Positions 22,978 through 61,157 of a stretch of 64,000 nt of DNA are shown piece after piece; position 1 is the first letter of the stretch; each line of letters starts with the position of its first letter. Both the position numbers and the translations under genes were made by a program. The notes under the pieces are model-generated. The model was not told the origin of the DNA, did not search any database, and worked only from the letters and a program-made list of their open reading frames with translations. The stretch is from assembly GCA_913057945.1 (NCBI GenBank), contig CAJXOF010000011.1, positions 59,121 to 123,120 on the forward strand, read 5' to 3'. Source of the DNA: an uncultured Hyphomonadaceae bacterium (GTDB lineage Bacteria > Pseudomonadota > Alphaproteobacteria > Caulobacterales > Hyphomonadaceae).

Positions 22978-23062
22978 ATTCGGAGACAGCCTGAACGGAC
23001 CGGGTTACCTTTTGCGCGAAACAGCGTTATTTGCTGGCGAACGCGAAAACGGAGTGATCCCC

Positions 23063-34125: not shown

Positions 34126-35088
34126 TTGAATTTTGAACGCGACCTCGACCTAGCCCGGAACGTCATCCGGATTGAGCGGAATGCGCTGGAGCAACTCGAA
34201 GCCGGCCTCGATGAGTCGATTGACCGCGCGGCGGACCTGATCATGGGCACTGACCGTCACGTCATCGTCGCAGGCGTCGGGAAGTCAGGACATATTGGCC
34301 AGAAGATCGCTGCCAGTCTCGCCTCGACGGGGACACCTTCCTTTTTCCTTCATCCGACCGAAGCCAGTCATGGCGATCTTGGCATGGTCGTTCCCGGCTC
34401 GGTGGTGATCGCGATCTCCTATTCCGGAGAAAGCCGCGAACTCGTCGATTTGCTGAGATATTGCCGTGGAAACAAGGTGCCCGTGATCGGCATGACCCGT
34501 GCCCCGGACTCCACGCTCGGACGCCATTCAAGCGTCCTGCTGGCCCTGCCGATCGTGGATGAGGCGTGCCCGAATGGCTTGGCGCCGACCTCATCGACCA
34601 CCATGTCGCTCGCCCTCGGCGACGCGCTCACAATTGTCCTGATGGCCCGGCGTGGCTTCTCTCGGGAAGAGTTTGGCTTCCGGCATCCCGGCGGCAAGCT
34701 CGGCCGGTCGCTCCAGACCGCCGCAGATTACCTGGCTGGCCATCGCGACCCTGTTCCCAGCGTCCCGGCCGAGGGTGACCTCCACGAAGTCATCATGGCG
34801 ATTTCGGAAGGGCGCAAAGGCTGCGTCGCGGTACTCGATAAAGACGGGTGCCTGATAGGGATGGTGACCGATGGAGACCTTCGCCGCGCCATGCTGGCGG
34901 GAAAGCTCGCGGGCAATGCCGAATCCATCATGACGCCTTCTCCGCGGACCATCTCTCCGGATGAACGGATGTCAGCGGTCATCAAGCGGCTGACCGAGCA
35001 TCGCATCTCCAACGCCTTTGTGGTCGAAGATGGACGCCCGGTCGGGATTGTGGACCTGAAGGACCTTCTTGCTGAAGGCTATGTCTGA
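34126..35088 (+). CDS. kdsD: Arabinose-5-phosphate isomerase (KdsD/KpsF/GutQ; SIS plus CBS domains)
   Basis: GVGKSGHIGQK, HPTEASHGDLG, APTSST, HPGGKLG, TDGDLRR. Confidence 0.92.
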   Translation: MNFERDLDLARNVIRIERNALEQLEAGLDESIDRAADLIMGTDRHVIVAGVGKSGHIGQKIAASLASTGTPSFFLHPTEASHGDLGMVVPGSVVIAISYSGESRELVDLLRYCRGNKVPVIGMTRAPDSTLGRHSSVLLALPIVDEACPNGLAPTSSTTMSLALGDALTIVLMARRGFSREEFGFRHPGGKLGRSLQTAADYLAGHRDPVPSVPAEGDLHEVIMAISEGRKGCVAVLDKDGCLIGMVTDGDLRRAMLAGKLAGNAESIMTPSPRTISPDERMSAVIKRLTEHRISNAFVVEDGRPVGIVDLKDLLAEGYV

Positions 35089-39912: not shown

Positions 39913-40018
39913 TCAGGAAGTCTACCACAACACCAAAATTGGTTCCATATGAAACTAATGGGCTGGGTCTTCGCCTAATTCGTTGATGGAACAGAGCTGC
40001 AGCTGCGAATATTGGCCG

Positions 40019-40624
40019 TTATGGAAGGTGCTCACGTTTAGGGGGCCTGCGATGCCATTCAACGTTCTCGCTGACCTGCCTTGCCGGTACGCCGGCCAGC
40101 GCCGAAAACGGCACATCATGAGACTTGGTAACCAGTGCACGTGTTCCCACGATGACGTTGTCGCAAATCGTAACGCCCTGCAGGATGCACACTTCCTTTC
40201 CTATCCAGCAGTGGTCACCTATCGTAATGTCTGCAGGCGGATTAAGTAACTCACCCGATGCTCTGTTCAGAATTGAATGGGCGTCGGTCGTACGAAATTC
40301 GATACCGTACGAAAGAAGGCAATCGTGACCGAGGGTGATCGTAGTTCCTCCATCACACAGAAAGTAGGCGCCATTGATTGTTGTTCCAGCTCCGATCTCT
40401 ATCTTGCTTCCTTCACCTGAAATCCGATAGTGCCCGGCTTTGATGACCGCGCCTTCGTGGAGTATGAAAGTGTTGTTAGAGCCAAGAAATTCGATCCTCG
40501 GGGCAACGCGTTTTCCAAGAGCAGCACGCGCCTTTATCACAAGGCGGTTGCCATCTCCATCAGTGCGGATATTCGCCTTTGGATGCAGAAAGCCATCATC
40601 AGCGATTTCCATTTCAATGTCCAT
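40019..40624 (-). CDS. Hexapeptide-repeat O-acyltransferase (capsule modification)
   Basis: Left-handed beta-helix repeats, RTTDAHSI, ITIGDHCWIG, AGVPAR. ATG 40624 follows AGGAG. Confidence 0.85.
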   Translation of the reverse strand: MDIEMEIADDGFLHPKANIRTDGDGNRLVIKARAALGKRVAPRIEFLGSNNTFILHEGAVIKAGHYRISGEGSKIEIGAGTTINGAYFLCDGGTTITLGHDCLLSYGIEFRTTDAHSILNRASGELLNPPADITIGDHCWIGKEVCILQGVTICDNVIVGTRALVTKSHDVPFSALAGVPARQVSENVEWHRRPPKREHLP

Positions 40625-40724
40625 TGATCTCTCCTGACCCACTTCCAAGTATTCAGAGCAGCTTTGCCGGACTAGCTCGATATTGAAAATTTCAATTTAG
40701 ATGAGCATCGGCGAGGCCGGAAAA

Positions 40725-43346
40725 TCAGGTGCGGACAGGCGCGGTGTGCGGGCGCAATTGCAGAACCCGGTCCAGACACTGTTCCACTTCACACTCCGTA
40801 TGAGTCACCGGATCGAACCAAAGCGTCTGGCGCAGAAAGACGGCTGAGACAATCTCCTCAAGCGTACGGGATGTACGCGGGTTGGCAAACGGCTGCATGT
40901 CGGTGGTCAGGCCCCAGCCAGCATAGAACGGCACCCCGAAACAGGTCACCTTCTTGCCTGCCATAAGAGCCTCAAGCCCTGCGCCCGAAGTCATCACATA
41001 GACCTCATCCATCTGCTTGATCAGATGCATGGCATTGCAGTTCTCGGAAATGAGCGTCAGGTTAGGATGCTCTTTCAGCCTGTCCAGGTCAAAATTCGCA
41101 CCTTTGACACCCTGCACCGTTTCCGGGTGCAGCTTCAGGAACACATGCGCGTCCTTCTGGTCGAGCGCGTGCTGTAACATGCCTTCGAACGTATAATTCT
41201 CACACTGGCCGAGCGAGATGGAAAGATCACCGGACGTCTGGTCCATGACCAGGATACGGCGCTGGCCCGCGCCCTCCTTGAAATCGACCATAGGCGCGTC
41301 ATTGTATTTGACGATATTGTGGTCGACAATCTTGTCGATCAGAGCCTTCGCCCGCGTCAGCATATCCTTGTCTGGCTCGCCGTCCAGGATCAGTTGTTCC
41401 GCACGGGATCGTTTCGTGGTGTCAAAGAAAATACCGAGGTCGTCCAGCATCAGCGAAAACTTGAACCCGGACTTGCTGGGAATGTTGAGTCCGGAAATCA
41501 GCCCGTATTCAGCCAAGGCTTTATCCACGCCCTGCGTTTCGGCGACGCTCAGAGCCTTTTTCCCGGACCCGCGCAGACCAAACCCGATAACAAGGGCATT
41601 GTCGGAGGGCTCGAGTGCCTTCTGAACTTCTGGCGTCAGCTTCAGGAAACTCTTGCCACCAACCATGTACTCCGTCAGACCTTCAGACGTGGTGAAAATT
41701 TGGTCATAGCCCTGAAGAAATTTTCTGGCCGTCCAGTCGGATGCCGTAGATTTTGTTGTCAGGTTCATGGTTGCAGCAGCAGGCGCGATCGTGCGGGCGC
41801 CTGCACGGACAGGCGTGTAATAGGTCTTCCGATCATCCAGCCTGACAAGTTTCTGAAAGAAATCCTTCTCGCGTGCAACCGCATGCCGCTTGGACCAGCC
41901 TGACCTTGCATCGGAATAGTGATAGAGGTCGCTCTGATTCTCCTCGGGATTTACGAAAGAACACCCAAGCACCTGATCACGCGACAGCGGGCCCGTCAGC
42001 TTGTACAGCATGTAGGAGAGCAACAACCCCGACGTCGGAATACTGCCGAGCTTTTCCGCCAGCTCGACATAGGGACGAGAGGGTGTAAAGCCCAGACCGG
42101 GCAACCGGTTGATATTCACACGGAACCAGTCCCAATTGTTGTAGTTCCTGTACAGTCGGTTTGCCCCGGTAATCATGACCTGCTTCAGCGAACGAGGGTC
42201 TGGCGCGAATCGCACATACGGGTGCGGCACCATCCTGACCCAAACATCCGTTTTTGTGCCATAGTCTTCCGAATACGGATATTCTGTGGAGAATGTGTTG
42301 AACCGGACAACAAGTCCAGCGGAATCCACTTCCGCGCCCCTGCCCTTGCCGACCTCTTGCGGCCCATTCCCTACAATCAGGACCGAGCCCTCAGCCTCAT
42401 GCACGAGGCGTTCGAATAGGCGCTCATTTTCCTGCAGCCTGTTAAGCAGGTTCTTGTCCCCGTCGTCCTTGGCACTCACGATATCGAGGTCGCTCAAAGC
42501 CACCCGCAAGCCAAGATATCCATCCAGGTTTGCCGTTGTGGGCAGCATCTCTATTGCTGAGCGCATCCGGTCATACTGTCCGGATGATGCAAGCATCGCG
42601 GCAAACGTCGCAAAGAAATTATTTGGCGCGACCAACCCCTTTTCCCGGACCTTCTGAAAGGCACTATTGTACGTTTCAAACATGTCCTCAGAGAAGGGCT
42701 CGCCTTCCCAGCGATAGTTCATGTACCGGCGCAACCAGGTGAGGAAGGGAGAATTGTCGGGCTGCCTCAGGATCTCAAAAACAATGGTCTTGAACACCTC
42801 AAGGAATTCAGGTTGCCGGTTACCCGCCTTGATCTGTTCCTCAACAAAAGCCAGCTTTTCGCTCAGGGTAGCCCCGGCATCTTCTGTACTGACGTGGACC
42901 GTGCCCGCAGGTGCAAACAATTCCTCCATATCCACATCTGCGTAGGATTTGACCTCTGCCAGCGAAGTCTTGAGCACCAGATGCAGGCTGTAAGTTTCAA
43001 TACCGGCCTCGGCGGCCTGATCGAGAAGGTCCTGATTGCGATACTCCATGTTCATGATCAGGGAGTCGCAAGGCGGCAATTTGATATTGTCGGGAGGAAG
43101 AAACTTCCGGAAGGAGAAATGCTCGAAAGTGACATCAGGATTGAGCCGCTGCAATCGGCTGCGCTGCTTGTGCGACACGCCGACCGTGCATACTTTCCTG
43201 GCCTTTGTTGCGTGCCCCCCGTCCGCTTCGTTGGCCGCGTGTGCAGTCAGAATCCGCCGTGCTTTCCGCACTGCCCTGACCGCCAGAGGCGGGACTTCCT
43301 GATACTTCTCGGTCAAAACGTCCTCATTCTTTTGCGAGCCTGCCAC
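40725..43346 (-). CDS. 873-aa multidomain capsule glycosyltransferase: unknown N-domain + GT29 sialyltransferase-like domain + KpsC-like (Capsule_synth) module
   Basis: aa about 321-497 carry sialylmotifs L, S, III and VS; aa about 585-873 carry SLMLDDLGIFFD, KYN, DQTSGDLSI, KLHPE, TSGAGLEAL and PFYAGWGLT. Confidence 0.8.
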   Translation of the reverse strand: MAGSQKNEDVLTEKYQEVPPLAVRAVRKARRILTAHAANEADGGHATKARKVCTVGVSHKQRSRLQRLNPDVTFEHFSFRKFLPPDNIKLPPCDSLIMNMEYRNQDLLDQAAEAGIETYSLHLVLKTSLAEVKSYADVDMEELFAPAGTVHVSTEDAGATLSEKLAFVEEQIKAGNRQPEFLEVFKTIVFEILRQPDNSPFLTWLRRYMNYRWEGEPFSEDMFETYNSAFQKVREKGLVAPNNFFATFAAMLASSGQYDRMRSAIEMLPTTANLDGYLGLRVALSDLDIVSAKDDGDKNLLNRLQENERLFERLVHEAEGSVLIVGNGPQEVGKGRGAEVDSAGLVVRFNTFSTEYPYSEDYGTKTDVWVRMVPHPYVRFAPDPRSLKQVMITGANRLYRNYNNWDWFRVNINRLPGLGFTPSRPYVELAEKLGSIPTSGLLLSYMLYKLTGPLSRDQVLGCSFVNPEENQSDLYHYSDARSGWSKRHAVAREKDFFQKLVRLDDRKTYYTPVRAGARTIAPAAATMNLTTKSTASDWTARKFLQGYDQIFTTSEGLTEYMVGGKSFLKLTPEVQKALEPSDNALVIGFGLRGSGKKALSVAETQGVDKALAEYGLISGLNIPSKSGFKFSLMLDDLGIFFDTTKRSRAEQLILDGEPDKDMLTRAKALIDKIVDHNIVKYNDAPMVDFKEGAGQRRILVMDQTSGDLSISLGQCENYTFEGMLQHALDQKDAHVFLKLHPETVQGVKGANFDLDRLKEHPNLTLISENCNAMHLIKQMDEVYVMTSGAGLEALMAGKKVTCFGVPFYAGWGLTTDMQPFANPRTSRTLEEIVSAVFLRQTLWFDPVTHTECEVEQCLDRVLQLRPHTAPVRT

Positions 43347-43357
43347 CTAACAGACAA

Positions 43358-44041
43358 TCACGTCATAAATGTAAACCCGACGTCTGACATTGAGCCAAAA
43401 TCACTCATCAGGGTTTCCCGTTCCTTTTCAAGGATATCCTTGCCAATCTTCCAGTCGCTGCGACCGTACACGAAGACAAACTTCATACCAAACTCTCTCG
43501 CCAACTCATAATCGAGTTGGGAATCCCCAAAATACACACCCCGGCGGCCAATCATCTGGTCAGCCTTAAGGCGCAGCATATTGTCCCTCTTCGTTGCCGG
43601 AGACCCCAGCACGGTGTCGAACTTTTCCGCGATGTTCCGTGCCGTGAGAACGCGGCGAACTTCGTCCTGATCACCGCCTGTATTGACACTGCATGGAACC
43701 ACTCCGCTGACTTGGTCGAGAAACTCCGGAAAACCGCCGATATAATCGCAGCTCAACAACCCCTCGAACACGATTGCGGCGAAGCGCTCAAGCGCCCGTT
43801 CCAAATGCGCATCCCTGTCGTCAACCTGGATGTAGCTGGTGAAGAATTCCTCGAACTTCCGGTAGCGCGACACTCCGCCCGTATTCCTGTGCCACTCGAC
43901 AAAACGCTCAATGGCGTCCGGATCATACCCCTCAAGGGCGCGCCCGAAGGCATCCGACTTAAGCCGATTGGAATCCAGAATGACCCCGTCACAATCGAAG
44001 ACGATGGAATCGAAGACGATGGAATCGAAAACCTGTTTCAT
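43358..44041 (-). CDS. HAD-superfamily hydrolase (phosphatase-like)
   Basis: FDCDGVILDSN motif I, VNTGG motif II, K, FGDSQLD motif IV. Confidence 0.88.
   Translation of the reverse strand: MKQVFDSIVFDSIVFDCDGVILDSNRLKSDAFGRALEGYDPDAIERFVEWHRNTGGVSRYRKFEEFFTSYIQVDDRDAHLERALERFAAIVFEGLLSCDYIGGFPEFLDQVSGVVPCSVNTGGDQDEVRRVLTARNIAEKFDTVLGSPATKRDNMLRLKADQMIGRRGVYFGDSQLDYELAREFGMKFVFVYGRSDWKIGKDILEKERETLMSDFGSMSDVGFTFMT
43993..44029. repeat. 15-bp tandem repeat (about 2.5 copies) in the HAD 5' end
   Basis: AATCGAAGACGATGG x2 + AATCGAA, encoding FDSIV-FDSIV-FD. Confidence 0.9.
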
Positions 44042-44775
44042 TGCACCAGTTGATCCCGCACCCTTTCGAGATCTTCAGGTGTATCAACCGAGATAAAATC
44101 CGGATCGAGCTCGATCATCTTCACCTCGTATCCCATTTCGACAAAGCGGAGAATTTCGATGTCCTCGACCATTTCGTGTTCAGTCTTGCGGGCCCGTGCA
44201 GCAAACTCGGCCAGAGCCGCAGCCGGAAACGCATAGACGCAGACCTGACGGCGGGAAAAATGGAACTCATCGGCCTTGTTGCCGGGAATTGGGGCCCGAC
44301 TCATATACATCAGGCGGCCATCCTCACGGATCACGACCTTCGGTACATTCGGGGAACGCCAATCGGCCTCGTTGTTGATCCACGCCCAACCATTGATGAT
44401 GTCATCTGGCTTCTCCAGGGCAGCATCAATAATCGCACGTATGTTGCCTGTCGGCATGAACGGCTCATCGCCCTGAACATTTATATAGGTCCGCGCCGAG
44501 ACCTTCTCTGCAAACTCCGCGATCCGGTCTGTGCCGGTCAGACAGTCTTCCGATGTCATGACAACCTTGGCGCCGAAACTCCTGCAGACATCGGCAATCT
44601 TGTCGCTGTCCGTCGCGATATAGATCCGGTTTTCCTCAACAGCCCCAAGCGCGCGCTCGTATGTGCGCTCAAGCATTGTCTTGCCGCCTATGTTCGCAAG
44701 CGGCTTTTCTGGCAGGCGGGAGGATTTCAGACGGGCCGGAATGACGACCACATAATCCCGAACCGTCTCAGACAT
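44038..44775 (-). CDS. kdsB: CMP-Kdo synthetase-like cytidylyltransferase
   Basis: IPARLKSSRLPEKPLA, IATD, TGTDRIAE, NVQGDEP, YMSRAPIP, EDIEILRF, SVDTPED. Confidence 0.85.
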   Translation of the reverse strand: MSETVRDYVVVIPARLKSSRLPEKPLANIGGKTMLERTYERALGAVEENRIYIATDSDKIADVCRSFGAKVVMTSEDCLTGTDRIAEFAEKVSARTYINVQGDEPFMPTGNIRAIIDAALEKPDDIINGWAWINNEADWRSPNVPKVVIREDGRLMYMSRAPIPGNKADEFHFSRRQVCVYAFPAAALAEFAARARKTEHEMVEDIEILRFVEMGYEVKMIELDPDFISVDTPEDLERVRDQLVQ

Positions 44776-44776
44776 G

Positions 44777-46405
44777 TCAGGCGACGCCATACAACGAGGC
44801 CATCGGTACATGGAAATGCGTTTCCGTCAGAGAGCTGATCTGGCACCCTGCCTCGGCCGCCTGATCCAGGAGCGACTGCATTTCCCGGTACTCGCGCGCC
44901 ATTCCATCAAATCCGTCAAACCCGGCGAGGAACACCTGGCTGGCATTTGCATCAAGCGCCATGGCCAGCGCCACCCCTGCCGCCAGCGGCGAAGGAATAT
45001 AGCAACCATCGCCGAGCGTCTCGAACCGGTCGGCTTCAACACAGACGCCATAGTCCACCACTTCGGTACGCTTTTCGATGTCACCTGCCACATCGTCCGG
45101 CATCGCTGCAAGGGACGTGTAAAGGGGCACATGAGCCCAGTCCTTCTTGCGCAAATAGGACAGGAGCCTGGCTGGATGGACACACACGATACCGTCAACC
45201 TGTGACGGGTCGTAGAAATCGTTGGCATTGACAGCCAGTTTCAGCGCTTGGTTCCGATGAGCAAACGCCTCGATCGCCTTGCTATGCCGCCGGGCATTCG
45301 GGCCGCCTGCAATAAGGACGACAGGTCGCCCTGTCCAGCGACCCTTCATCTCTGTTGTACCGTGCGGCTTGTTGAGGAAGCTCGCAAAGGCCGATTCAAT
45401 ATTCTTTTCACTGTAGGAAAGATTGTGATCGGAATCTCCGAGCGTGGAGATCATTGACAGGATGTCGATCGGCTCGAACCGATCAGTCTGGAGCATTTGC
45501 TGCACATAGCTCGGGTGAACGGCGCGCAGGCCCGCCTCATAGTAATAGAGATTCGTGCCCCACCCGTAATCCTTCTGCATTGCGGAAAACTCACCGGTCG
45601 CCGCCTGGTGGATATGCAGGCACTTCAGATCTGACAGTCCCCGATTCTTCAGCTCGATCGCCAGGTATTCTGTCTGTGTATTGCCAGCCCCGCGCCCCAT
45701 GCCGGTAATGGTCGCGTCGACCCAAGTCGCCCCAGCCTCAATGGCACAGAGAGAGTTCGACACGCCAAGGCATATATTGTCATGCCCATGAAAACCGATG
45801 GCTTTGTCGCTCTGCTCACGGAGCAGCTCCACTACGCGCCGCACGTCTTCCGGACGCATATTGCCGAGGCTGTCGGCAAAATAGAGAGCTTCAAAATCCA
45901 CGAAGTCTTCTTCGATGGTGCGAACCAACTCACGGACTTTCTCGTCGTCTGCCTGACTGATCTGCATGATGTTGAGCCCAACCATGTAGCCAAGCTCCTT
46001 GAGCCGGGCAATCAGCGGACCACACTCCGGGATTTGGCGGATATGGGCTGCGATACGGACAAGGGAGATAGGGGATTCAGAAGCCGGAACAAAGTTGCGG
46101 TGAATGTCATCTTCCATCGCATCTGTAAGATAGTCCGAAGCGTTCAACATCACGCCATAGGTCGGCCCTTCGGGCAGGTTCAGCGTCGCCAGGAACTCTT
46201 CCGATGTGTGGGCGAAGGGACCGTAAAATTTCGACTGGTCAGTAAAGCGAAAGCCAATTTCGATAATGTTCACGCCGCCGAGCGCCAGTTGCTCGAAGTA
46301 GGATTCAGCAAGATCGGCGTCAAAATCCCAAGCATTGTAATAACCACCATCCCTGAGGGTACAGTCGAGCAGATTCACAGATCCTGTGGTCATCGTTTGC
46401 TCCAT
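44777..46405 (-). CDS. DRE-TIM metallolyase (HMGL-like; 4-hydroxy-2-oxovalerate-aldolase-like) with a C-terminal Rossmann-like domain
   Basis: LDCTLRDGGY, FADSLG, HGHDN, GMGRGAGN; C-terminal VVLIAGGPN…AVN…FLAGFDG. Confidence 0.82.
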   Translation of the reverse strand: MEQTMTTGSVNLLDCTLRDGGYYNAWDFDADLAESYFEQLALGGVNIIEIGFRFTDQSKFYGPFAHTSEEFLATLNLPEGPTYGVMLNASDYLTDAMEDDIHRNFVPASESPISLVRIAAHIRQIPECGPLIARLKELGYMVGLNIMQISQADDEKVRELVRTIEEDFVDFEALYFADSLGNMRPEDVRRVVELLREQSDKAIGFHGHDNICLGVSNSLCAIEAGATWVDATITGMGRGAGNTQTEYLAIELKNRGLSDLKCLHIHQAATGEFSAMQKDYGWGTNLYYYEAGLRAVHPSYVQQMLQTDRFEPIDILSMISTLGDSDHNLSYSEKNIESAFASFLNKPHGTTEMKGRWTGRPVVLIAGGPNARRHSKAIEAFAHRNQALKLAVNANDFYDPSQVDGIVCVHPARLLSYLRKKDWAHVPLYTSLAAMPDDVAGDIEKRTEVVDYGVCVEADRFETLGDGCYIPSPLAAGVALAMALDANASQVFLAGFDGFDGMAREYREMQSLLDQAAEAGCQISSLTETHFHVPMASLYGVA

Positions 46406-46652
46406 TTCCTTGTAAATACCGCTAAAAGATTCACTGACTTCCGCCCGCAGGTTTCAGATAATCCGGACAGTCTCGCTTAGCACATCCTTGCAAATTTCCA
46501 AGGAACAGCCCGCCCTTTAACTCAGTAATACTCAGACACCTCTGCTGTGAGGCAGTCATACGCAGGCAGCAGGCCAATCGGCCGTCCTCAACAAATGAAC
46601 TGGGGCGTGGCCCATCAATTTGCCACCATCATGCACCACGCTGGCGCGTCCG

Positions 46653-47822
46653 TCACTTCAGGCAAACAAGAGCGTCTATAGCTTCCTCTACCGAGTAGTG
46701 GTGATTGCCTACAAACAGGCCGTTCACGTCGATATAGTCGGCATTTTTCAGCTCGCCATGGATCTCGTAATCGAAATACTTCATGACCTCATTCTTGGCA
46801 AAGTTGCCGGCAACGATGGGGCGGCATTCAAAGCCTTGTTCGATGAGGGTTGCCACAAACTCTTTTCTGGAAACGCCCGCCATTGGCCGAAGCACTAGCG
46901 AAAATCCAAACCAGCTACTTTCCCCGATCTCCCTTTGAATAATGAATTTCGGATGGTTGGAGAGCTTTTCCTGTACGATTTTACCATTCGCCTGACGACC
47001 AGCAATCAGGCTCGGCAGTTTCTTCAACTGCTCGGCCCCCAACGCCCCAGACATTTCCAGCGGGCGTAGATTGTAACCTGGCAGTACGAACCGGAATGAC
47101 TCCTCGAAGGGATCGTCGCTCTTGACCCCGGTAACCTTGTTCTCCTTCGGCAGGTTCCGCGTCCAGCCATGCGCGCGCAGGGCCAGCATGATGTGATAGA
47201 GTTCCTCGTCATCAGTGACGACGACGCCACCCTCCATCGTCGAGATATGGTGTGAGAAGAAGCTGGAAAAGCTACCGAGCAGGCCGAAAGTACCGGCCTG
47301 TTTGCCTTGATATGTCGCCCCCATCGACTCACAATTGTCCTCGATCATGACGATGTCACGGCCACCGATAATGTCGTTGATGACTGCAAAATCGTTCGGA
47401 TTGCCGAGCAGGTTCACAACCATGATAGCCCGCGTCTTGTCGGTCACTGCCTCACGCAGGGCATCGAGATCGTAGTTCAGCGTCTCGACATCGATGTCCA
47501 CGAATTTGAGCTTCAGCCCATACTGCGCCAACGGATAGTAAGTCGTGCTCCAGGAGACAGCGGGCACGATGATCTCGTCGCCCCGGTTCAACCGGTGGCG
47601 CGGATTGCTGGTGAAGAACAGCGCCGCGGTCATGAGGAGGTTCGCCGACGATCCGGAGTTGACCATAAGGGCATATTTCGAACCGAAGAAGTTGGCAAAG
47701 GCGCCCTCGAACCGCTCCACTTCGGAGCCCATTGAGTACCGGTCCGAGTCAATCACGCGCTGGAGCGCCGCCATTTCAGCCTGGTCCCAGGATGAAGTCG
47801 CAAGGGGGTATTTCACAGTCAT
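46653..47822 (-). CDS. colD: GDP-4-keto-6-deoxymannose 3-dehydratase (ColD-type PLP enzyme)
   Basis: NSGSSANL, IEDNCES, FSSFFSHHISTMEGG (His at the position where aminotransferases have the Schiff-base Lys); downstream of gmd and the reductase. Confidence 0.85.
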   Translation of the reverse strand: MTVKYPLATSSWDQAEMAALQRVIDSDRYSMGSEVERFEGAFANFFGSKYALMVNSGSSANLLMTAALFFTSNPRHRLNRGDEIIVPAVSWSTTYYPLAQYGLKLKFVDIDVETLNYDLDALREAVTDKTRAIMVVNLLGNPNDFAVINDIIGGRDIVMIEDNCESMGATYQGKQAGTFGLLGSFSSFFSHHISTMEGGVVVTDDEELYHIMLALRAHGWTRNLPKENKVTGVKSDDPFEESFRFVLPGYNLRPLEMSGALGAEQLKKLPSLIAGRQANGKIVQEKLSNHPKFIIQREIGESSWFGFSLVLRPMAGVSRKEFVATLIEQGFECRPIVAGNFAKNEVMKYFDYEIHGELKNADYIDVNGLFVGNHHYSVEEAIDALVCLK

Positions 47823-47823
47823 A

Positions 47824-48750
47824 TCAAAGCCCGCTGAGATAATGTTCGTAAGTGAGTTTCAGGCCATCATGGAGCGACGTGGCCGGCTGCCATCCCCATG
47901 TCTCCTGCCGAGAGGTGTCAGTGAGTTTCTGCTTCATCCCAACCGGCTTGCTGGTGTCGTAGGTGAAGCGCCCAGCCCAGCCGACAGTTTGCGCGACTGC
48001 CTCATAATACTCGCGAATGGAATAGTCGTGTCCGAGGCCGATATTCATGAGATCGGGAATGGCCTCAATATCGTTAGCCGCCTGGAAGATCGCGTGGGCG
48101 AGGTCGGCGGCGTACATGAACTCGCGCCGAGCCGAACCGTCCCCCCAGATCTCAACCTCCTCCTGCCCGTTCGCCCGCGCTTCATGGATCTTGTGGATAA
48201 CGGCGGGAACGAGATGGGAATGCTTCGGATCGAACTTGTCATACCGGCCATAGAGATTGCACGGGATCAATGTCTTGAACTGTGCGCGCTCGTCTTCGCG
48301 GCGGATATACTGGCACAGTCGCAGCGCCATGATCTTGGCGAGCGCGTAGCCTTCATTCGTCGGCTCCAGTTCCCCGGTGAGGATCAGCTCTTCGCGTAGC
48401 GGGTTATGGCCGTTGCGTGGATATATGCAGGTGGAAGCGAGGTTTATCAGCCGCCGCACCCCGGCCTGATGCGCCCCCAGGATCACGTTCCGACCGATGG
48501 AAACGTTACGGTCCAGGAACGCGACCGGATGCGCGATGTTCGCCTGAATGCCGCCCACCTGCCCGGCCGCATGCACGACCAAGTCAGGCTTGTTGGCCTC
48601 GTAGAAGGCACGCACCGCCGCCTCATCCATCAGATCGAGGTCGCCGCTTGACGGGGCAAGTATGGTCCAGTCAGCCGCTGCCGGATGCTCCAGCACGTTC
48701 CGGCCGACCATGCCGGACCCGCCGGTCAGGAAGAGGACGCCTTTGGACAT
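47824..48750 (-). CDS. GDP-L-fucose/GDP-colitose synthase (epimerase-reductase, Fcl/ColC type)
   Basis: GGSGMVG, VHAAGQVGGI, STCIYP, YALAK, PCNLYG, WGDGSARREF. Confidence 0.9.
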   Translation of the reverse strand: MSKGVLFLTGGSGMVGRNVLEHPAAADWTILAPSSGDLDLMDEAAVRAFYEANKPDLVVHAAGQVGGIQANIAHPVAFLDRNVSIGRNVILGAHQAGVRRLINLASTCIYPRNGHNPLREELILTGELEPTNEGYALAKIMALRLCQYIRREDERAQFKTLIPCNLYGRYDKFDPKHSHLVPAVIHKIHEARANGQEEVEIWGDGSARREFMYAADLAHAIFQAANDIEAIPDLMNIGLGHDYSIREYYEAVAQTVGWAGRFTYDTSKPVGMKQKLTDTSRQETWGWQPATSLHDGLKLTYEHYLSGL

Positions 48751-48756
48751 GGGCGC

Positions 48757-49884
48757 TCAGCCTTCCTCCCGTGAAACCGGCAGTTCGAGGCCGTGCTCAC
48801 GCAGCAGCCGTCCGCGCAAGGCGGATTTGAGATCCTCCGCCACCATCTCTGCGCACATCTCGCGGGCCGTAATCAGCGGTTCCCAGCCGAGATCCTTCAT
48901 CGCAAGGCTCGGATCGCCAAGCAGCGTTTCCACTTCCGCCGGCCGGAAATAGCGCGGATCGACGCGCACGACCACGTCGCCGGGCTTCAAGTCCGTTTTC
49001 GTTGACCCGTCCACGGCGTCCACGATCCCGATTTCCTCGACACCCTGCCCCTCAAACCGGATCTTCAGGCCCAGTTCCGCAGCGGTCCATTCGATGAATT
49101 CGCGTACCGTATACTGCTTGCCAGTGGCGATGACATAATCCTTCGGCTCGTCCTGCTGCAGCATCATCCACTGCATGCGGACATAGTCGATGGCGTGCCC
49201 CCAGTCGCGCAAGGCATCGAGATTGCCCATGTAGAGACAGTCTTCCAGACCCTGCGATATATTCGACATGCCGCGCGTGATCTTGCGCGTCACAAATGTC
49301 TCGCCACGGCGCGGGCTCTCATGATTGAACAGGATGCCATTGCAGGCATAGATGCCATAGGCTTCGCGGTAGTTCACCGTGATCCAGTAAGCATAGAGCT
49401 TGGCTACTGCGTAGGGTGAGCGCGGATAAAAGGGCGTGGTTTCGGTCTGCGGGGTCTCCTGGACGAGGCCGTAAAGCTCAGAGGTCGAGGCCTGGTAGAA
49501 GCGCGTCTTCTTTTCCAGGCCGAGGAAGCGGATCGCCTCAAGCAGGCGCAGCGTGCCGAGGGCGTCGACATCTGCGGTGTATTCCGGCGACTGGAAGCTG
49601 ACCGCAACATGCGACTGCGCGCCGAGATTGTAGACCTCATCCGGCTGCACTTCCTGCAGGATGCGGGTCAGGTTCGAACTGTCACTCAGGTCGCCATAGT
49701 GCAGCTTCAGATTCACGTTCTTCTTGTGCGGATCTTCGAAGATATGGTCGATCCGCTGGGTATTGAACAGCGAGGACCGGCGCTTTATTCCGTGCACTTC
49801 GTATCCCTTCTCGAGAAGGAATTCAGCCAGATAGGAGCCATCCTGCCCCGTGATGCCGGTGATGAGCGCAACTTTCTTCGTCAT
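48757..49884 (-). CDS. gmd: GDP-mannose 4,6-dehydratase
   Basis: [53 protein letters not shown]. Confidence 0.97.
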
Positions 49885-52309: not shown

Positions 52310-54178
52310 TCAATCCTCCGATCCCACCTCCGCCGCCATCGCGTCAAATGCAGCCGGAAAACTGTCCAGCGTGAAGCTCTGCTCATGGCAGTAGCGATAG
52401 AGATAGGCTTTCACGCGGCAGACCCAGTCCGGATCCGCAGCGCCCCCGGCCGACGCATCCAGCGCGGCGGCAAGCTCCGATACGGAACGGACCGGCCAGC
52501 TCACTTCTTCATATTCGCAGGCCCCCAGAGACATAACGGGTTTCAGCCTCAGCAACGCTTCGATTCCAACGCCGGAATTGACCGTCACAATCGCCGTAGC
52601 CTTTTCGAGCAACACGTGAATGGATGTGCGGCTGATGAAGACGCTATCGGAAGTGGCCAGGCGCTCCAGCCGCCGCCGGGTTGCATGCGACCTGTCAATG
52701 GGATGCGCCTTGATCACGAGCTGAAGCCCACGCGATTCAGCCTCGGCCACAAGTGCCGCAAGCCATGTGTCGAGGTCCATGGACGCAAGGCTCATCACCG
52801 TGTCATCCGGAATTTGCAGGGCGACGAGAACAAAGGACTCCGGCAGCGCCTCATCGCTCTCCTGCTGAGTGTATTTTGATCGGCGCTGGTGGACATACGT
52901 TTCCTGCAAGTCACGAAACGCTGCATCGACGACATCCGCCGGAACAGCGTCCGCGCCTGTCGGAGCGTCTCCCTCCCAACCGGAAAATCCTTCGCGGTCG
53001 AACTTGAAATAGCCCGGCAAGGCGCTTTCCTTGAAGTTCAGGAACCGCTGCCTGCGCCTTGAAACCGTGTGATAACTGAGAGTGGGCTGAACATTTTCGC
53101 CGCTCTTTCGGACGTCAAAGATATTGCTTGCGGCAACCGGACAAAAGTAATCGTACTGCCGCGCCACCTGCTGCGCAGCCGCTTTGAAGGCGCCGACAAA
53201 ACTGGCCTGGATCGCATCATGATCCGCCAGCCGCCAGTAGCCTTCGCCCAGCACGCGCAGGCGGCAGGTATCGTCGGCATGGTCAGCCAACCTGGCCATG
53301 TCCGATTCAGCGCCCTGCAACGGAATGACATGCCAATCTTCCTGCAAGGCATTGAACGTCACGAGGTTCAGGATTGTTTCCCAGCCCTTCACGCTGGAAG
53401 GCAAGGTGATGCCTGCGGGAGCGATTTGCCGGCATAGGTCCGGAGGCAGCAATTCGCGTATCCTGTCATACAGTGCCGAACCGTCACGGATCAGCGGAAA
53501 CCCGATCTGCCACATGGCCCTGTGCCGGGCCTGCGGATTAGGTGCGGGCCAACGGCTCAGCCCCTCCAGCAGCAATCTGTGAAACCCGGTCCGGTCCGTA
53601 TCGGGATATCCAAGCGCGTCCGCAATATCCCGCGCGGCGATCAGCTCTTGAATACCAAGCGGTGCCCCACCGGCAAGTTCTGCCTTGATCCACTCGAACG
53701 CCTCGTCGAGCCGGTCAAGCTTCATGTGCCTGCGGGCGAAATAGTAAAGCGGCAAGAAGGCTATCTGCATGGGCAGGCGCGACAGCCGCTCATAGGCGGC
53801 CGCGTAGTTCTGGGCATCCAGATCAGCATGGTACAGGTATTCGTCAATGTTCAGCTGGTGACGGTCGCAAAAGCCGCGAACCGCAGACTCAGCATCATCA
53901 CCGCGCCGGACCTTATCGACCAGGTTCCTGACCTGACCTGCCGATAGGCTGCCATCCAGTACATACGGCGTCAGCCATTGGCCAAGGGCGGTCTGGTTCC
54001 ACTCTCTCTGCTCCCGCCTTCCGTGTCGGCAGAAATGGAAAATGGCCGCAATGGAATCGGCCGGAACGTCTGCATTGGCTTGTCGATAGAGCCCTGTATC
54101 GAACACGCCGCTGCGATACAGGCTGACGCTGGCCAGGACGTCGCTAAGAAGATTTTTCCGGTTCACGATACTGGCCAT
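52310..54178 (-). CDS. Capsule_synth (KpsS/WcbO-like) glycosyltransferase with a long N-terminal region
   Basis: C-terminal LVALQIPDD, VIKAHP, SIHVLL, VTVNSGVGIEALL; N-terminal FD..LY…N.DV…HF..HG..E.R motif. Confidence 0.72.
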   Translation of the reverse strand: MASIVNRKNLLSDVLASVSLYRSGVFDTGLYRQANADVPADSIAAIFHFCRHGRREQREWNQTALGQWLTPYVLDGSLSAGQVRNLVDKVRRGDDAESAVRGFCDRHQLNIDEYLYHADLDAQNYAAAYERLSRLPMQIAFLPLYYFARRHMKLDRLDEAFEWIKAELAGGAPLGIQELIAARDIADALGYPDTDRTGFHRLLLEGLSRWPAPNPQARHRAMWQIGFPLIRDGSALYDRIRELLPPDLCRQIAPAGITLPSSVKGWETILNLVTFNALQEDWHVIPLQGAESDMARLADHADDTCRLRVLGEGYWRLADHDAIQASFVGAFKAAAQQVARQYDYFCPVAASNIFDVRKSGENVQPTLSYHTVSRRRQRFLNFKESALPGYFKFDREGFSGWEGDAPTGADAVPADVVDAAFRDLQETYVHQRRSKYTQQESDEALPESFVLVALQIPDDTVMSLASMDLDTWLAALVAEAESRGLQLVIKAHPIDRSHATRRRLERLATSDSVFISRTSIHVLLEKATAIVTVNSGVGIEALLRLKPVMSLGACEYEEVSWPVRSVSELAAALDASAGGAADPDWVCRVKAYLYRYCHEQSFTLDSFPAAFDAMAAEVGSED

Positions 54179-56469: not shown

Positions 56470-56472
56470 TCC

Positions 56473-57200: not shown

Positions 57201-58340
57201 TTGATTGATGCTGACAATTCATCGCGGAATTTCCGGCCGAGACGATTATTCAGGGGCCTCCTGAACTCGCTTTCGGGCGTTCCGGTTTTCAGTGAACTCA
57301 TCTACGGCGCCCGGGATCTGTTGTTGCCCAAGACGCATGGCACATGGTTTGTTTGCAATGTCGCCAGCTGGAAACAGCCCTTCCTGGAGACTTACCTGAA
57401 AGACCTTGGCGCCCGCCGCGTCGAATTTGTCAGCCGGGAAGCGGACAAATATGTCCTGCGCAATCAGTTTTGCACCCATCGCGATGAACAGATCATCATC
57501 TGGGGCGCGGTGGAACCACCGGCGCTTATGGATCATATCCAGCGGCGCAAACTGAAAATCTGGCGCCTGGAGGACGGATTCATCCGTTCGATCGGTCTGG
57601 GCGCCCGCCATATCCCGCCAGCCAGCCTGATGCTGGACCGGACGGGTGGAATCTACTTCCGTTCGGACCGGCCCTCGGCACTGGAGGCATATCTTGCCAG
57701 CCATGAGTTCACCGACACGGAAATTGACGCCGCAAGCAAGGCTCTTGACGCGATCCGTTCTGCCAATCTGACAAAATACAATCTCGCTGAGGACGAGACC
57801 GATTTCGGCATCAGGCCGGAAGACAGGAATATTCTCGTCTTCGGTCAATGCGAGGATGACCAGTCCGTCATTCATGGTAGTCCGAAGATCAAGCTCAATT
57901 CGGAATTGCTGGAACAGGTCCTCCAGGACTATCCGGGCTGCCGGATATTCTTCCGCCCGCACCCGGACGTAGTAGCAGCGCTGCGACCGCAGCTTTCAGA
58001 TATCAGTGTATACGCAGACAGAGTGACCATCATGGACGGCCCCTTTCCCGTCTGGAAGAAGATCAACCTGTTTGAAAAAGTCTGCGTCCTGACATCGCTT
58101 GCCGGTTTCGAAGCCCTGATAAGGGGTGTCGCTGTCCAGACCTATGGTATTCCATTCTATGCCGGCTGGGGCCTGACGGACGATCATGTCACCACGAAAC
58201 GCCGGAACCGGAAGCTCAGCCTTGAGGAAGTTTTTTACGGCGCCTATCTGGCTCAGCCGCACTATATCGAGCCGCAGACTGGTCATTTGTCCAATTTTGA
58301 AGCCATCGTCAGGCATTTGAAAGCAGCGCAGGCCGACTAG
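57201..58340 (+). CDS. kpsC: Single-module KpsC-like beta-Kdo transferase
   Basis: LEDGFIRSIGLG, SLMLDRTGGIYF, KYNL, GQCEDDQSV, RPHPD, TSLAGFEAL, PFYAGWGLTDD. Confidence 0.8.
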   Translation: MIDADNSSRNFRPRRLFRGLLNSLSGVPVFSELIYGARDLLLPKTHGTWFVCNVASWKQPFLETYLKDLGARRVEFVSREADKYVLRNQFCTHRDEQIIIWGAVEPPALMDHIQRRKLKIWRLEDGFIRSIGLGARHIPPASLMLDRTGGIYFRSDRPSALEAYLASHEFTDTEIDAASKALDAIRSANLTKYNLAEDETDFGIRPEDRNILVFGQCEDDQSVIHGSPKIKLNSELLEQVLQDYPGCRIFFRPHPDVVAALRPQLSDISVYADRVTIMDGPFPVWKKINLFEKVCVLTSLAGFEALIRGVAVQTYGIPFYAGWGLTDDHVTTKRRNRKLSLEEVFYGAYLAQPHYIEPQTGHLSNFEAIVRHLKAAQAD

Positions 58341-58449
58341 CGCGCATCCAGTCCTGCGGCTGAAGCAATTTGCAAAATCTGTTGATTTGCAGACCTGTAG
58401 AAAGCCCGTCTATTGCCCCTGATCCCAACATGTAGTCCAGAGTAGTTTC

Positions 58450-59610: not shown

Positions 59611-59670
59611 TCTCCGGACTTTACCGGACCTTTTACGAACACTTTCCGGTCTCCTTTCCGGACCTCGCAC

Positions 59671-59700
59671 AGGCAGCGCGCACTTCGCGCGTTGCCTTTT
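59671..59700 (+). terminator. Terminator-like hairpin after the aminotransferase gene
   Basis: AGGCAGCGCG-loop-CGCGTTGCCT followed by TTT. Confidence 0.55.
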
Positions 59701-59730
59701 CGCGTGTAGCGTGGTAGCCGCGATACAAAC

Positions 59731-61143: not shown

Positions 61144-61157
61144 GGCGGCGCAGAACA

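Follow-up and report, generated by a model that had tools for sequence, protein, structure and literature searches.

The 873-aa protein described here, from the capsule gene cluster of a marine bacterium, joins a GT29-like (sialyltransferase-fold) domain and a KpsC-type GT107 module in one chain, and it probably functions as a bifunctional CMP-ulosonic-acid transferase or polymerase, pairing an inverting GT29 with a retaining GT107 activity, in an ABC-transporter (group-2-like) capsule pathway. Animal glycans receive their sialic acids from GT29 enzymes, and almost no work has been done on the bacterial relatives of this family; this fusion and its relatives suggest that a key role of bacterial GT29-like domains is to partner retaining Kdo transferases in the assembly of acidic capsules.

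Architecture of the fusion protein

The fusion gene lies on the complementary strand of the window, that is, of the whole 64-kb stretch of DNA that was analysed. An AF2 model of the product (pLDDT 84.2, pTM 0.71) gave the following layout, from the N-terminal alpha/beta unit through the helical region, GT29-like domain and linker to the GT107 module:

40725..43346, minus strand: whole fusion ORF, 873 aa, GTG start (ORF list)
42972..43205, minus strand: small alpha/beta unit, aa 48-125 (AF2 strands and helices, pLDDT >90)
42396..42929, minus strand: all-helical TPR-like region, aa 140-317, before the GT29-like domain (AF2)
41847..42389, minus strand: GT29-like (sialyltransferase-fold) domain, aa 320-500 (HMM, family alignment, Foldseek, profile search)
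41748..41837, minus strand: interdomain linker, aa 504-533 (disordered, AF2 pLDDT <50)
40737..41729, minus strand: single KpsC-N-type GT107 module, aa 540-870 (sequence and fold match to KpsC, residue mapping)

Seven full-length orthologues (44-57% identity) conserve residues from aa ~48 on, and the long N-terminus of the fusion is therefore supported. The initial annotation had regarded the ~320 residues preceding the GT29-like domain as having no known domain, and no family match was indeed found for them, the AF2 model resolving them into the alpha/beta unit and the TPR-like helices. A Pfam scan gave no match to the aa 48-125 unit, and hhalign detected no relation of this unit to GT107 or GT29. 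Relatives of the fusion have Pfam or Gene3D TPR matches at the position equivalent to aa 140-317, and in the Cps3D/Cps7D polymerases linker elongation requires a TPR domain (PMC11666461); by analogy, the TPR-like region and N-terminal unit may position the acceptor. The linker is poorly conserved, differing in length and sequence among orthologues. The AF2 model has no evident N-terminal transmembrane segment, and the fusion is a cytoplasmic protein without a signal anchor.

The interval 41847-42386, in which four sialylmotifs had been claimed, corresponds to aa 321-500, the compact alpha/beta domain of the AF2 model, and all four motifs could be located there: the L motif at aa 321-366 (S321-VLIVGNGP...GLVVRFN350...DYGTKT366), the S motif at aa 437-464 (P437-TSGLLL...G461-CSF464), motif III at aa 474-479 (L474-YHYSD479) and the VS motif at aa 488-493 (H488-AVARE493), in which His488 is the putative catalytic residue. 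The match to Pfam PF00777 (25.1 bits, E 1.4e-5) is above the gathering score of 23 but marginal, and comes solely from aa 323-370 in the L motif; precomputed PF00777 matches are also found in the fusion orthologues and family members, and NCBI labels the relatives 'glycosyltransferase family 29 protein'. A profile built on the family of this domain matched the solved GT29 enzymes ST6GalNAc2 (1.4e-6), ST8SiaIII (1.8e-5), ST6Gal1 (2.8e-5) and ST3Gal-I (2e-4), with sub-threshold second stretches in the same order, the S motif with ST6GalNAc2 and motifs III and VS with ST8SiaIII. Foldseek searches with the AF2 model returned the same four enzymes (ST6Gal1, ST6GalNAc2, ST3Gal-I and ST8SiaIII; 4js1, 6apl, 2wnb and 5bo8) at probability 1.00 over 188-251 columns, and no GT42 structure appeared in the top 50; the target-normalised TM of 0.40-0.49 is low because the bacterial domain has ~180 aa against ~270-320 aa. 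A family alignment of 63 sequences shows conservation of at least 90% for residues N327, P329, G337, D341, R348, N350, D361, G363, G440, G461, F464, H488 and E493. The L motif is thus significant by itself by sequence, and the S, III and VS motifs, each weak singly, draw their support from their collinear order, the predicted fold and conservation across the family. Judged by its model, the fusion carries a GT29-like domain with the GT-A variant-2 sialyltransferase fold.

The description of this domain as 'eukaryote-style' did not hold. Ser321 occupies the L-motif Cys position, and the L/S-motif cysteine pair of the Golgi enzymes is missing; these cysteines and the type-II Golgi topology are hallmarks of the eukaryotic clade and do not define the CAZy family, and GT29 membership stands. 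Petit et al. 2018 (PMC5811610) had reported the bacterial clade in which the domain falls; this GT29-like clade has 4,863 cluster representatives at E<=1e-3, and a TPR-like region usually stands in front of the domain. The view that bacteria have few GT29 members no longer holds.

The GT107 module and the apparent split of KpsC

The presence of a KpsC-like module in the same chain, also proposed in the initial annotation, was borne out by a PF05159 (Capsule_synth) match at E 2.4e-25 and by phmmer against 6mgc (E 6e-45 over aa 583-857; ~30% identity to KpsC). By sequence, the module scored 157 bits to 6mgc and 113 to 6mgd; by fold, Foldseek gave 6mgb at 2.5e-23 and 6mgc at TM 0.87 (rmsd 2.7 A), with TM 0.85-0.87 for 6mgb/6mgc against 0.78 for 6mgd. 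Sequence and model thus favour KpsC-N, the 2->4 enzyme, over KpsC-C as the nearer relative and as the guide to the predicted linkage. The catalytic set is intact and invariant in all seven orthologues (Glu613, Gln703-x3-Asp707 and His740-Pro741), and Lys680 and Tyr681 map onto sugar contacts of KpsC, in which the Glu is the general base, the Asp of QxxxD the nucleophile and the His of the HP motif the acid (PMC10148158). Phe640 replaces Tyr93 of KpsC-N, which contacts Kdo O4, and is Phe in six of the seven fusion orthologues. Since canonical KpsC has two tandem modules (N and C) and the fusion only one, it belongs to GT107 without being a canonical KpsC.

A second KpsC-like gene was found in the window:

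57201..58340, plus strand: stand-alone KpsC-C-like beta-Kdo transferase, one module, 379 aa, adjoining kpsT

This protein scored 178 bits to 6mgd, the beta-2,7 transferase, and 132 to 6mgc, and it keeps the catalytic residues and the Tyr93 equivalent; counterparts of its gene occur in loci L001 and L002/3. In the fusion loci for which DNA was available, each had exactly one KpsC-N-type and one KpsC-C-type module, and none had a dual-module KpsC. KpsC therefore appears to be split at this locus, with its N-type half in the fusion and its C-like half in a separate gene. Separate KpsC N and C modules are known from Thermosulfurimonas dismutans (PMC10148158). The KpsC-N-like type of the GT107 module, the separate KpsC-C-like gene and an aldolase gene upstream of the cytidylyltransferase (see below) are points that go beyond the initial annotation.

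It is conceivable, although we consider it rather unlikely, that the fusion GT107 performs only the housekeeping linker step together with the KpsC-C-like protein, while the GT29-like domain acts as a 'transition' transferase (for the concept see PMC11666461) or as one specific to the serotype, placing on poly-Kdo only the initial residue beyond the linker, or else a cap or a branch, the bulk polymer being made by a GT2, a 342-aa protein and the products of the colitose genes. The reciprocal matches of the two proteins to KpsC-N and KpsC-C and the precedent in T. dismutans are consistent with this, and the fusion GT107 may carry out the linker step because it is the only KpsC-N-type module seen per locus. 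A complete KpsC-like region is moreover joined to TPR and GT29 in Oceanobacillus and in many metagenomic relatives, and GT29 is therefore tied to the linker machinery. However, among the ORFs annotated at the Oceanobacillus locus, which encodes a KpsC+TPR+GT29 protein and all of the KdsA/B/C/D Kdo pathway, no further gene for sugar supply was seen, leaving Kdo as the sole candidate polymer sugar, and the E. coli K6 polymer appears to be poly-Kdo; the GT29/GT107 pair there therefore seems to build the polymer itself. The change of Tyr93 to Phe in the fusions, where the stand-alone module has Tyr, hints at non-canonical substrate recognition, and the inventory covers the 64-kb window, so that a canonical kpsC may lie elsewhere in the genome.

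Gene neighbourhood, distribution and the donor sugar

Directly before the fusion gene lies a cassette of three genes; a canonical KdsA gene is found elsewhere in the window:

44777..46405, minus strand: cassette gene 1, two-domain 542-aa protein, N-terminal half of the DRE-TIM (HMGL-like) pyruvate-aldolase type
44038..44811, minus strand: cassette gene 2, KdsB/KpsU-like cytidylyltransferase, PRK13368 subfamily (NF009905)
43358..44041, minus strand: cassette gene 3, HAD-IA-type phosphatase (HAD_2 1.6e-12)
23012..23911, plus strand: canonical Kdo-8-phosphate synthase KdsA (DAHP_synth_1; NF003543 376 bits, cut-off 242)

The first cassette protein matched 3dxi in the PDB (2e-43), and its AF2 model (pLDDT 93) placed DmpG/BphI-type aldolases at TM ~0.8; its C-terminal half is a ~240-aa alpha/beta domain without family assignment, and the two-domain family has more than 2,264 members. 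The cytidylyltransferase scored 280 bits to NF009905 (cut-off 255), the model to which all cassette copies score best, and its best PDB match was the CMP-Kdo synthetase 1gq9 (133 bits). Reading frames throughout the aldolase-cytidylyltransferase-HAD-fusion block overlap or nearly abut (the cytidylyltransferase and HAD genes overlap by 4 nt, and the HAD gene ends 11 nt upstream of the fusion start codon); the cassette is translationally coupled and directly precedes the fusion gene. The block is kept in L001, L002/3, L006 and L007, and the cassette in L004 with an unfused GT29.

Other genes of the window fit a capsule locus:

40019..40648, minus strand: hexapeptide-repeat O-acetyltransferase, directly downstream of the fusion (family matches)
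46653-47822, minus strand: ColD, GDP-colitose (structure match 2gms, 5e-174)
47824-48750, minus strand: ColC/Fcl-like reductase, GDP-colitose (family matches)
48757-49884, minus strand: Gmd, GDP-colitose (family matches)
52310..54178, minus strand: 622-aa protein, weakly KpsS-like in its Capsule_synth region at aa ~426-557 (PF05159 1.5e-14)
55645-56469, plus strand: KpsM-like ABC-2 permease (family matches)
56473-57195, plus strand: KpsT-like ATPase (family matches)
34126..35088, plus strand: KpsF/KdsD-type arabinose-5-phosphate isomerase (TIGR00393 269 bits, cut-off 204)

The hexapeptide-repeat enzyme, with similar genes in L006 and L008/L009, probably O-acetylates the polymer. The GDP-colitose genes (46653..49884) are a variable side-chain module, absent in L002, and the isomerase gene is also present in L001, L002, L007 and L008. 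The 622-aa protein is tentatively a candidate lipid-priming Kdo transferase; it scored 24 bits to the KpsS model, far under the cut-off, and a PDB search gave no relative. No KpsE/KpsD export genes turned up in the 64-kb window.

The architecture is not unique to this locus, as the initial annotation had implied: in the survey, 14 of the 17 long close relatives tested carried both GT29 and GT107. The seven fusion orthologue clusters come from independent assemblies, and the DNA of the window is present in several marine metagenome runs, indicating that the fusion is real and under selection. A second fused subfamily is represented by a 1,355-aa protein of an uncultured Nioella (L007), which shares the GT29-before-GT107 order with P0250, P0252, P0253, P0255 and P0256. 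In L004, L024, L025 and L027 the two genes are unfused neighbours, and the GT29-GT107 partnership is thus recurrent.

Because canonical KdsA is present in the window, the aldolase cassette is not needed for Kdo, and the coexistence of the two suggests that the locus supplies a second CMP-activated 3-deoxy-ulosonic acid besides Kdo. It is probably the pyruvate-aldolase-type enzyme that defines this donor. Two cytidylyltransferase paralogues at one locus need not mean two donors; the E. coli enzymes KdsB and KpsU both make CMP-Kdo. It is possible, and we propose it tentatively, that the cassette is a PEP-independent route, with an aldolase in place of a KdsA/NeuB-type synthase, to an undescribed CMP-activated 3-deoxy-2-ulosonic acid, whose dedicated transferase would be either the GT29-like domain or the GT107 module with its Tyr93 to Phe change. 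Kdo and the new sugar would in that case be joined by the fusion into a mixed alpha/beta polymer, and half of the KpsC linker apparatus would be physically tied to the polymerising step; the cassette product might differ from Kdo in its C4 configuration or in chain length. If this is true, there is a widespread unrecognised branch of acid-sugar metabolism, as more than 2,000 members of the aldolase family adjoin cytidylyltransferases in many phyla.

That the fusion is a primer-extending or polymerising enzyme using a non-sialic ulosonic acid, as first proposed, is still the best reading of the gene neighbourhood in at least five independent loci. A true sialyl- or nonulosonic-acid transferase, for which another part of the genome would supply CMP-Neu5Ac, CMP-Leg, CMP-Pse or CMP-Kdn, is very improbable, even though sialyltransferases are what GT29 classically contains and what the domain matches in fold and motifs, and although many stand-alone GT29-like genes of bacteria have neither GT107 nor Kdo genes in their loci. 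The earlier statement that the window has no neuABC genes held for its larger ORFs, which were scanned with Pfam: no NeuB, NeuC or Pse/Leg-type gene was present among them or among the called genes of the orthologous loci. Because of this, and because the conserved adjacent cytidylyltransferase is KdsB-type and not NeuA-type, a sialic acid donor is very unlikely here, and the closest relatives are overwhelmingly joined to Kdo-transferase modules; across the wider family, the loci without GT107 or Kdo genes make other donors likely. An inactive GT29-like domain, serving as a CMP-sugar- or acceptor-binding scaffold that regulates GT107, for example in chain length, has very little probability: strong conservation relative to eukaryotic GT29 is confined to the nucleotide-binding L motif and the domain is compact, but conservation of His488, Glu493 and the glycines of the S motif is at least 90% among 63 diverse members, and its occurrence as the sole GT domain in hundreds of stand-alone proteins argues for catalysis.

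Proposed function and comparison with known systems

The domain identities, conserved catalytic residues and gene neighbourhoods of the fusion are direct observations; for the bifunctional transferase or polymerase we infer the donor, the anomeric outcome, a processive alternation and the N-terminal roles as follows. The GT107 module would act in the manner of KpsC-N, with Asp707 attacking a CMP-beta-sugar, aided by His740, to form a covalent enzyme-sugar adduct, after which Glu613 would activate the acceptor hydroxyl to give a beta-linked (retained) Kdo-type residue. The GT29-like domain would hold its CMP-sugar through motifs L and S and, with His488 of the VS motif as general base, would add an alpha-linked ulosonic acid by single displacement with inversion, while the TPR-like region and N-terminal unit would place the growing lipid-linked acceptor. 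At least one donor would come from the cassette, in which the aldolase would join pyruvate and an aldose phosphate, the HAD phosphatase would strip the phosphate from the product, and the KdsB-like enzyme would form the CMP-sugar. Together with the stand-alone KpsC-C-like protein and the KpsS-like primer enzyme, the fusion could thus convert a Kdo glycolipid into an acidic Kdo or Kdo-like polymer, which would bear colitose and O-acetyl groups and be exported via KpsM/T.

Characterisation of one fusion would provide the first bacterial GT29 activity, and could test whether alternating inverting and retaining modules yield alpha/beta ulosonic-acid polymers, including the putative poly-Kdo of K6. 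Such enzymes could serve in the synthesis of Kdo-containing glycans, and the linked cassette could bring a new route to CMP-activated acid sugars to light. A split KpsC would indicate that the 'conserved' machinery of the capsule anchor is open to rearrangement and to fusion with enzymes specific to a serotype.

The initial annotation knew of no characterised GT29-GT107 fusion, and none has been characterised enzymatically, but a dual GT29-GT107 ORF has been reported in E. coli K6 (K6_8), with K126_10 as a second such protein (PMC13171606, Nat Microbiol 2026; preprint 2025). Like the present fusion, K6_8 and K126_10 combine a KpsC-type GT107, TPR-like helices and a GT29-like domain in one polypeptide, and K6_8 is encoded in the serotype-specific part (region 2) of an ABC-transporter capsule locus and is proposed to transfer Kdo from CMP-Kdo; the evidence for poly-Kdo in K6 consists of MALDI masses consistent with a Kdo homopolymer (PMC13171606). 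The order in K6_8 is GT107 (aa 80-340, cd16439 KpsC_2, C-module type), TPR and GT29 (577-781), whereas the present fusion has the opposite order of N-terminal unit, helices, GT29 and then a KpsC-N-type GT107. In addition, K6 retains a canonical dual-module KpsC, whereas KpsC appears split here, and the part of the E. coli K-locus table that was available lists no HMGL-like aldolase, whereas the present locus has a tightly linked cassette. What was already known is therefore a dual ORF of the other order with a KpsC-C-type module; the split KpsC and the conserved, coupled aldolase-KdsB-like-HAD cassette before the fusion are new here.

KpsC of E. coli and T. dismutans (6MGC, 6MGB, 6MGD, 8FUW, 8FUX) has the same GT-B-like fold and identical Glu, QxxxD and HP residues and Lys/Tyr sugar contacts, and in T. 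dismutans, too, a C-type module is found on its own. Unlike KpsC, the fusion has its one module behind a GT29-like domain, with Phe at the Tyr93 equivalent, and it ends at the GT107 fold (aa 870 of 873), so that the C-terminal membrane-anchoring region appears to be missing. With the eukaryotic GT29 enzymes ST6Gal1, ST6GalNAc2, ST3Gal-I and ST8SiaIII it shares the GT-A variant-2 fold and the order L, S, III, VS; these enzymes use CMP-activated 2-ulosonic acids, the donor class predicted for the fusion, and plant RCKT1, a putative RG-II Kdo transferase, is a precedent for a GT29 that appears to use CMP-Kdo (PMC11288761). The fusion differs from the eukaryotic enzymes in being cytoplasmic, in lacking the L/S cysteine pair, in its ~180-aa domain and in being joined to other GT modules. 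Among multidomain group-2 capsule polymerases, Cps3D/Cps7D would resemble it in having two alternating catalytic modules per chain and a TPR region needed for engaging a lipid-linked primer, and KrkA (GT140, E. coli K13) resembles it in that a retaining module for Kdo transfer is combined with another transferase, but these systems belong to the TagF-like/GT4 and GT140/ribosyltransferase families, respectively, and do not involve GT29.

Domain layout and identity of the fusion protein

A minus-strand ORF of 873 codons lies at 40725-43346 in the window, and an AlphaFold2 model of its product (pLDDT 84.2, pTM 0.71) was divided into the following units:

aa 48-125, small alpha/beta unit
aa 140-317, all-helical, TPR-like region
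aa 320-500, GT29-like domain
aa 504-533, disordered linker
aa 540-870, GT-B-like module

In one database gene call, the identical protein (P0001) is only 776 aa long and starts approximately 97 codons 3' of the GTG used here, leaving out 43056-43346. The longer form was favoured since aa 48-97 are conserved in all orthologues. An origin of the N-terminal alpha/beta unit (aa 20-135) as a remnant of a GT107 acceptor subdomain was ruled out (hhalign probability 0.2).

The initial annotation had placed a sialyltransferase domain of family GT29 at 41847-42386, which corresponds to residues 321-500 of the fusion. Pfam searches matched both halves of the protein, Capsule_synth (PF05159) strongly at aa 690-839 (E 2.4e-25) and Glyco_transf_29 (PF00777) at aa 323-370 (E 1.4e-5), the latter at 25.1 bits, where the gathering score is 23. 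Judged by its score and extent, the PF00777 match is marginal and restricted to sialylmotif L. A GT29 domain profile built from ten bacterial homologues matched the sequences of solved mammalian GT29 enzymes, namely ST6GalNAc2 (1.4e-6), ST8SiaIII (1.8e-5), ST6Gal1 (2.8e-5), and ST3Gal-I (2e-4), with collinear, sub-threshold alignment of the S motif to ST6GalNAc2 and of motifs III and VS to ST8SiaIII. Foldseek comparison of the AlphaFold2 model returned ST6Gal1, ST6GalNAc2, ST3Gal-I, and ST8SiaIII with a probability of 1.00, and N327, P329, R348, N350, D361, G363, G440, G461, F464, H488, and E493 were at least 90% conserved in a 63-sequence alignment. Because the profile matches to solved enzymes, the predicted fold, and the conservation of motif residues are three independent lines of evidence, the GT29 assignment is confident, and the domain proposed in the initial annotation was confirmed. 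A GT42 (CstII-like) identity was ruled out, as PF06002 gave no match at E<=0.1 and GT42 structures were absent from the top 50 fold matches.

The last module of the fusion is a single KpsC unit. A phmmer search with the fusion matched E. coli KpsC-N (6mgc) at E 6e-45 versus 9e-32 for the T. dismutans beta-2,7 enzyme 6mgd, and Foldseek gave the module a TM of 0.85-0.87 to the beta-2,4 transferases 6mgb and 6mgc versus 0.78 to 6mgd. The KpsC residues found essential by Doyle et al. (PMC10148158) mapped to the fusion, with the general base Glu66 at E613, the QxxxD motif and its nucleophile Asp160 at Q703/D707, the HP-motif His at H740, and the Kdo contacts Lys133/Tyr134 at K680/Y681, all of which are invariant in 7 of 7 orthologues. 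Tyr93 of KpsC-N hydrogen-bonds Kdo O4 (PMC10148158); its equivalent (aa 640, nt 41427-41429) is Phe in six of the seven fusion orthologues, and a stand-alone KpsC-C-like protein retains Tyr at this position. The Tyr to Phe change may relate to a donor or adduct with a difference at C4.

A 379-aa Capsule_synth protein adjoining kpsT was considered as a KpsS, which was ruled out since it is a single KpsC-C-type module (178 bits to 6mgd versus 132 to 6mgc). Using tblastn, the window and the fusion loci L001 and L002/3 were each found to have a single N-type module, which is part of the fusion, and a single C-type module encoded on its own, and no dual-module KpsC was found in the DNA of these three. 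As each locus has one module of each type and no dual KpsC, KpsC appears to be split, with its N-type half fused behind the GT29-like domain. Separate KpsC modules have been described as unusual, and are known from T. dismutans (PMC10148158).

Capsule locus and putative donor-supply cassette

By gene content, the fusion gene is located in an ABC-transporter (group-2-like) capsule cluster that includes:

55645-57195, KpsM and KpsT
34126-35088, KpsF-type isomerase
GT2
622-aa protein with weak KpsS similarity
GDP-colitose genes: Gmd, ColC-like reductase, and ColD (5e-174 to 2gms)
O-acetyltransferase

Among the larger ORFs scanned throughout the window, none was an export gene of KpsE or KpsD type, and the periplasmic and outer-membrane components of the exporter must therefore be encoded outside it. 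In the uncultured Nioella locus (L007), YjbH and YjbF genes flank the cluster in place of KpsE/KpsD.

Directly upstream of the fusion are three genes, with overlapping or nearly abutting frames, encoding a 542-aa two-domain protein, a KdsB/KpsU-like cytidylyltransferase of the PRK13368 subfamily, and a HAD-IA phosphatase. The N-terminal half of the 542-aa protein has a DRE-TIM fold, is nearest to the uncharacterised 3dxi (E 2e-43), and is also close in fold to DmpG/BphI-type pyruvate aldolases (AF2 pLDDT 93). In this family the N-terminal domain alone has a structure (3dxi), and the second domain is an alpha/beta unit of approximately 240 aa with no visible PDB match in the top 50 fold hits. 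A GT29/DUF115-like identity for this C-terminal half ('VVLIAGGPNA') was ruled out by an hhalign probability of 0.1 against the GT29 profile and the lack of a Pfam match. The two-domain aldolase (approximately 540 aa) was located at:

44777-46405 (-), window
6948-8570, L001
3395-5017, L004 (Thermodesulfobacteriota contig)
10001-11632, L005 (Magnetospirillum)
12756-14405, L007 (uncultured Nioella)

The block of three genes lies beside the fusion in L001, L002/3, L006, and a second fused subfamily from uncultured Nioella (L007), and in L004 it occurs with an unfused TPR-GT29 gene between two Capsule_synth genes. More than 2,264 proteins from many phyla belong to the aldolase family, which nearly always adjoins a KdsB-like cytidylyltransferase and a HAD phosphatase. 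The family is also seen in other contexts such as Magnetospirillum, where a B12-radical-SAM enzyme and a DHDPS-like aldolase are further parts of the block.

A bona fide KdsA is encoded in the window at 23012-23911 (376 bits versus a cut-off of 242), the Nioella locus has KpsF, KdsB, and KdsA alongside the cassette, and L001 has a second KdsB of canonical type; the cassette thus probably feeds a second sugar, which would be another CMP-activated 3-deoxy-2-ulosonic acid. It is possible instead that the cassette is a dedicated extra Kdo supply. The Oceanobacillus locus, in which a KpsC+TPR+GT29 protein occurs with canonical KdsB, KdsA, KdsD, and KdsC, gave rise to the idea that the aldolase and HAD phosphatase merely replace KdsA and KdsC, which is weakened by the KdsA in the window and by the co-occurrence of KdsA and aldolase in Nioella. 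A phosphonate pathway, which would combine an HMGL-like enzyme with a cytidylyltransferase, was ruled out by the absence of a PEP-mutase-type gene from the locus. A literature search found no relevant publication on the aldolase cassette, and it is absent from the accessible part of the E. coli K-locus table.

The Oceanobacillus loci (L008 1-13200 and L009; O. saliphilus / O. salinisoli, Gram-positive relatives of Bacillus) hold a complete Kps-like system of a KpsS-like protein, KdsB, KdsA, KpsF, KdsC, KpsM, and KpsT, along with the KpsC+TPR+GT29 protein (1,135 aa), a further Capsule_synth protein, and an acetyltransferase. This gene set points to a polymer based on Kdo, although the organism has no LPS.

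The G+C content at 40001-48000, over the fusion, cassette, and ColD genes, is 0.54-0.56 versus 0.58-0.68 in most of the window, which is in keeping with horizontal exchange of a serotype-specific region. In L006 (8600-10606), the fusion and cassette have a phage-type integrase and an HTH_17 gene within a few kb, a hint that the module can be mobile. A DUF2793 protein of approximately 318 aa (51221-52177(-)) is conserved within three capsule loci (also L001 11-973 and L002 1637-2593). Between it and gmd is a 342-aa protein (49984-51012(-)) with no relative in Pfam, NCBIfam, or PDB, which by position is a candidate colitosyltransferase. In L001 this position is taken by a different 458-aa protein, and a search there detected no counterpart. 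A 951-aa ORF (58309-61164(-)) without a Pfam match is antisense to a well-supported S-adenosylhomocysteine hydrolase gene (59749-61143, +) and is probably spurious, of a kind common in high-GC DNA; several further long antisense ORFs in the window resemble it.

Distribution of the fusion and of the GT29-like domain

Only 7 full-length orthologue clusters of the fusion, one of them from a Henriciella MAG, were found among 5.8 billion proteins, with 38-51% identity over aa 1-560, and a GTDB scan using full-length patterns gave no match. The window DNA is present in seawater and marine metagenomes.

Unlike the full-length fusion, the GT29-like domain is by no means rare. With a word-indexed search, 423 bacterial proteins with this domain were retrieved, many titled 'glycosyltransferase family 29 protein', and the cluster representatives found in an exhaustive HMMER search numbered 4,863 at E<=1e-3, 1,378 at <=1e-10, and 229 at <=1e-30. 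The genes occur in genomes of Alphaproteobacteria, Bacilli, Actinobacteria, Melainabacteria, Spirochaetes, Planctomycetes, and others. The earlier description of the domain as eukaryote-style, with sparse bacterial members, does not hold in view of these numbers, and bacterial GT29, mostly alphaproteobacterial, had already been reported by Petit et al. 2018 (PMC5811610). About a third of the top 150 representatives are longer than 600 aa, and GT29 and Capsule_synth occur together, in either order, in 14 of the 17 long closest relatives scanned, some of which add an FkbM methyltransferase. In two metagenomic proteins, P0250 and P0252, a GT29 to GT107 fusion carries a C-terminal FkbM-type methyltransferase domain, suggesting O-methylated ulosonic-acid polymers.

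Proposed function and comparison with known proteins

The GT107 module would follow a double-displacement mechanism that yields a beta (retained) linkage. Single displacement with inversion is the established chemistry of GT29 enzymes, and the GT29-like domain would use His488 as the base, giving an alpha (inverted) linkage. By analogy with the TPR domains of other capsule polymerases, which engage a lipid-linked primer (PMC11666461), the helical region may do the same. Acting alongside the KpsS-like and KpsC-C-like enzymes, the fusion would lengthen a Kdo glycolipid to a polymer rich in ulosonic acids, to which colitose and acetyl groups would then be added. In the main rival explanation, the GT107 half does no more than the housekeeping linker step of KpsC-N, and a single transition residue is added by the GT29 half; this view overlaps with that of polymer extension. 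The original proposal of a transferase of a non-sialic ulosonic acid was judged reasonable.

A 2025-26 survey of E. coli kps loci reported that K6 holds 'an ORF encoding a dual GT29-GT107 domain protein', which agrees with the MALDI species of a Kdo homopolymer (PMC13171606). This combination of domains was thus already on record, as an uncharacterised one, and the framing of the fusion as one of a kind not known before does not hold. The K6 protein, K6_8, consists of a KpsC_2-type GT107 (80-340), a TPR region (380-575), and a GT29-like domain (577-781), and K126_10 is similar (PMC13171606 supplement). What adds interest to the present finding is the division of KpsC and the linkage to an aldolase cassette. 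Compared with K6_8, the fusion has a different domain order, a different type of GT107 module, and different genomic partners, and it is a new architectural variant within a recently noticed, widespread, and biochemically unexplored class.
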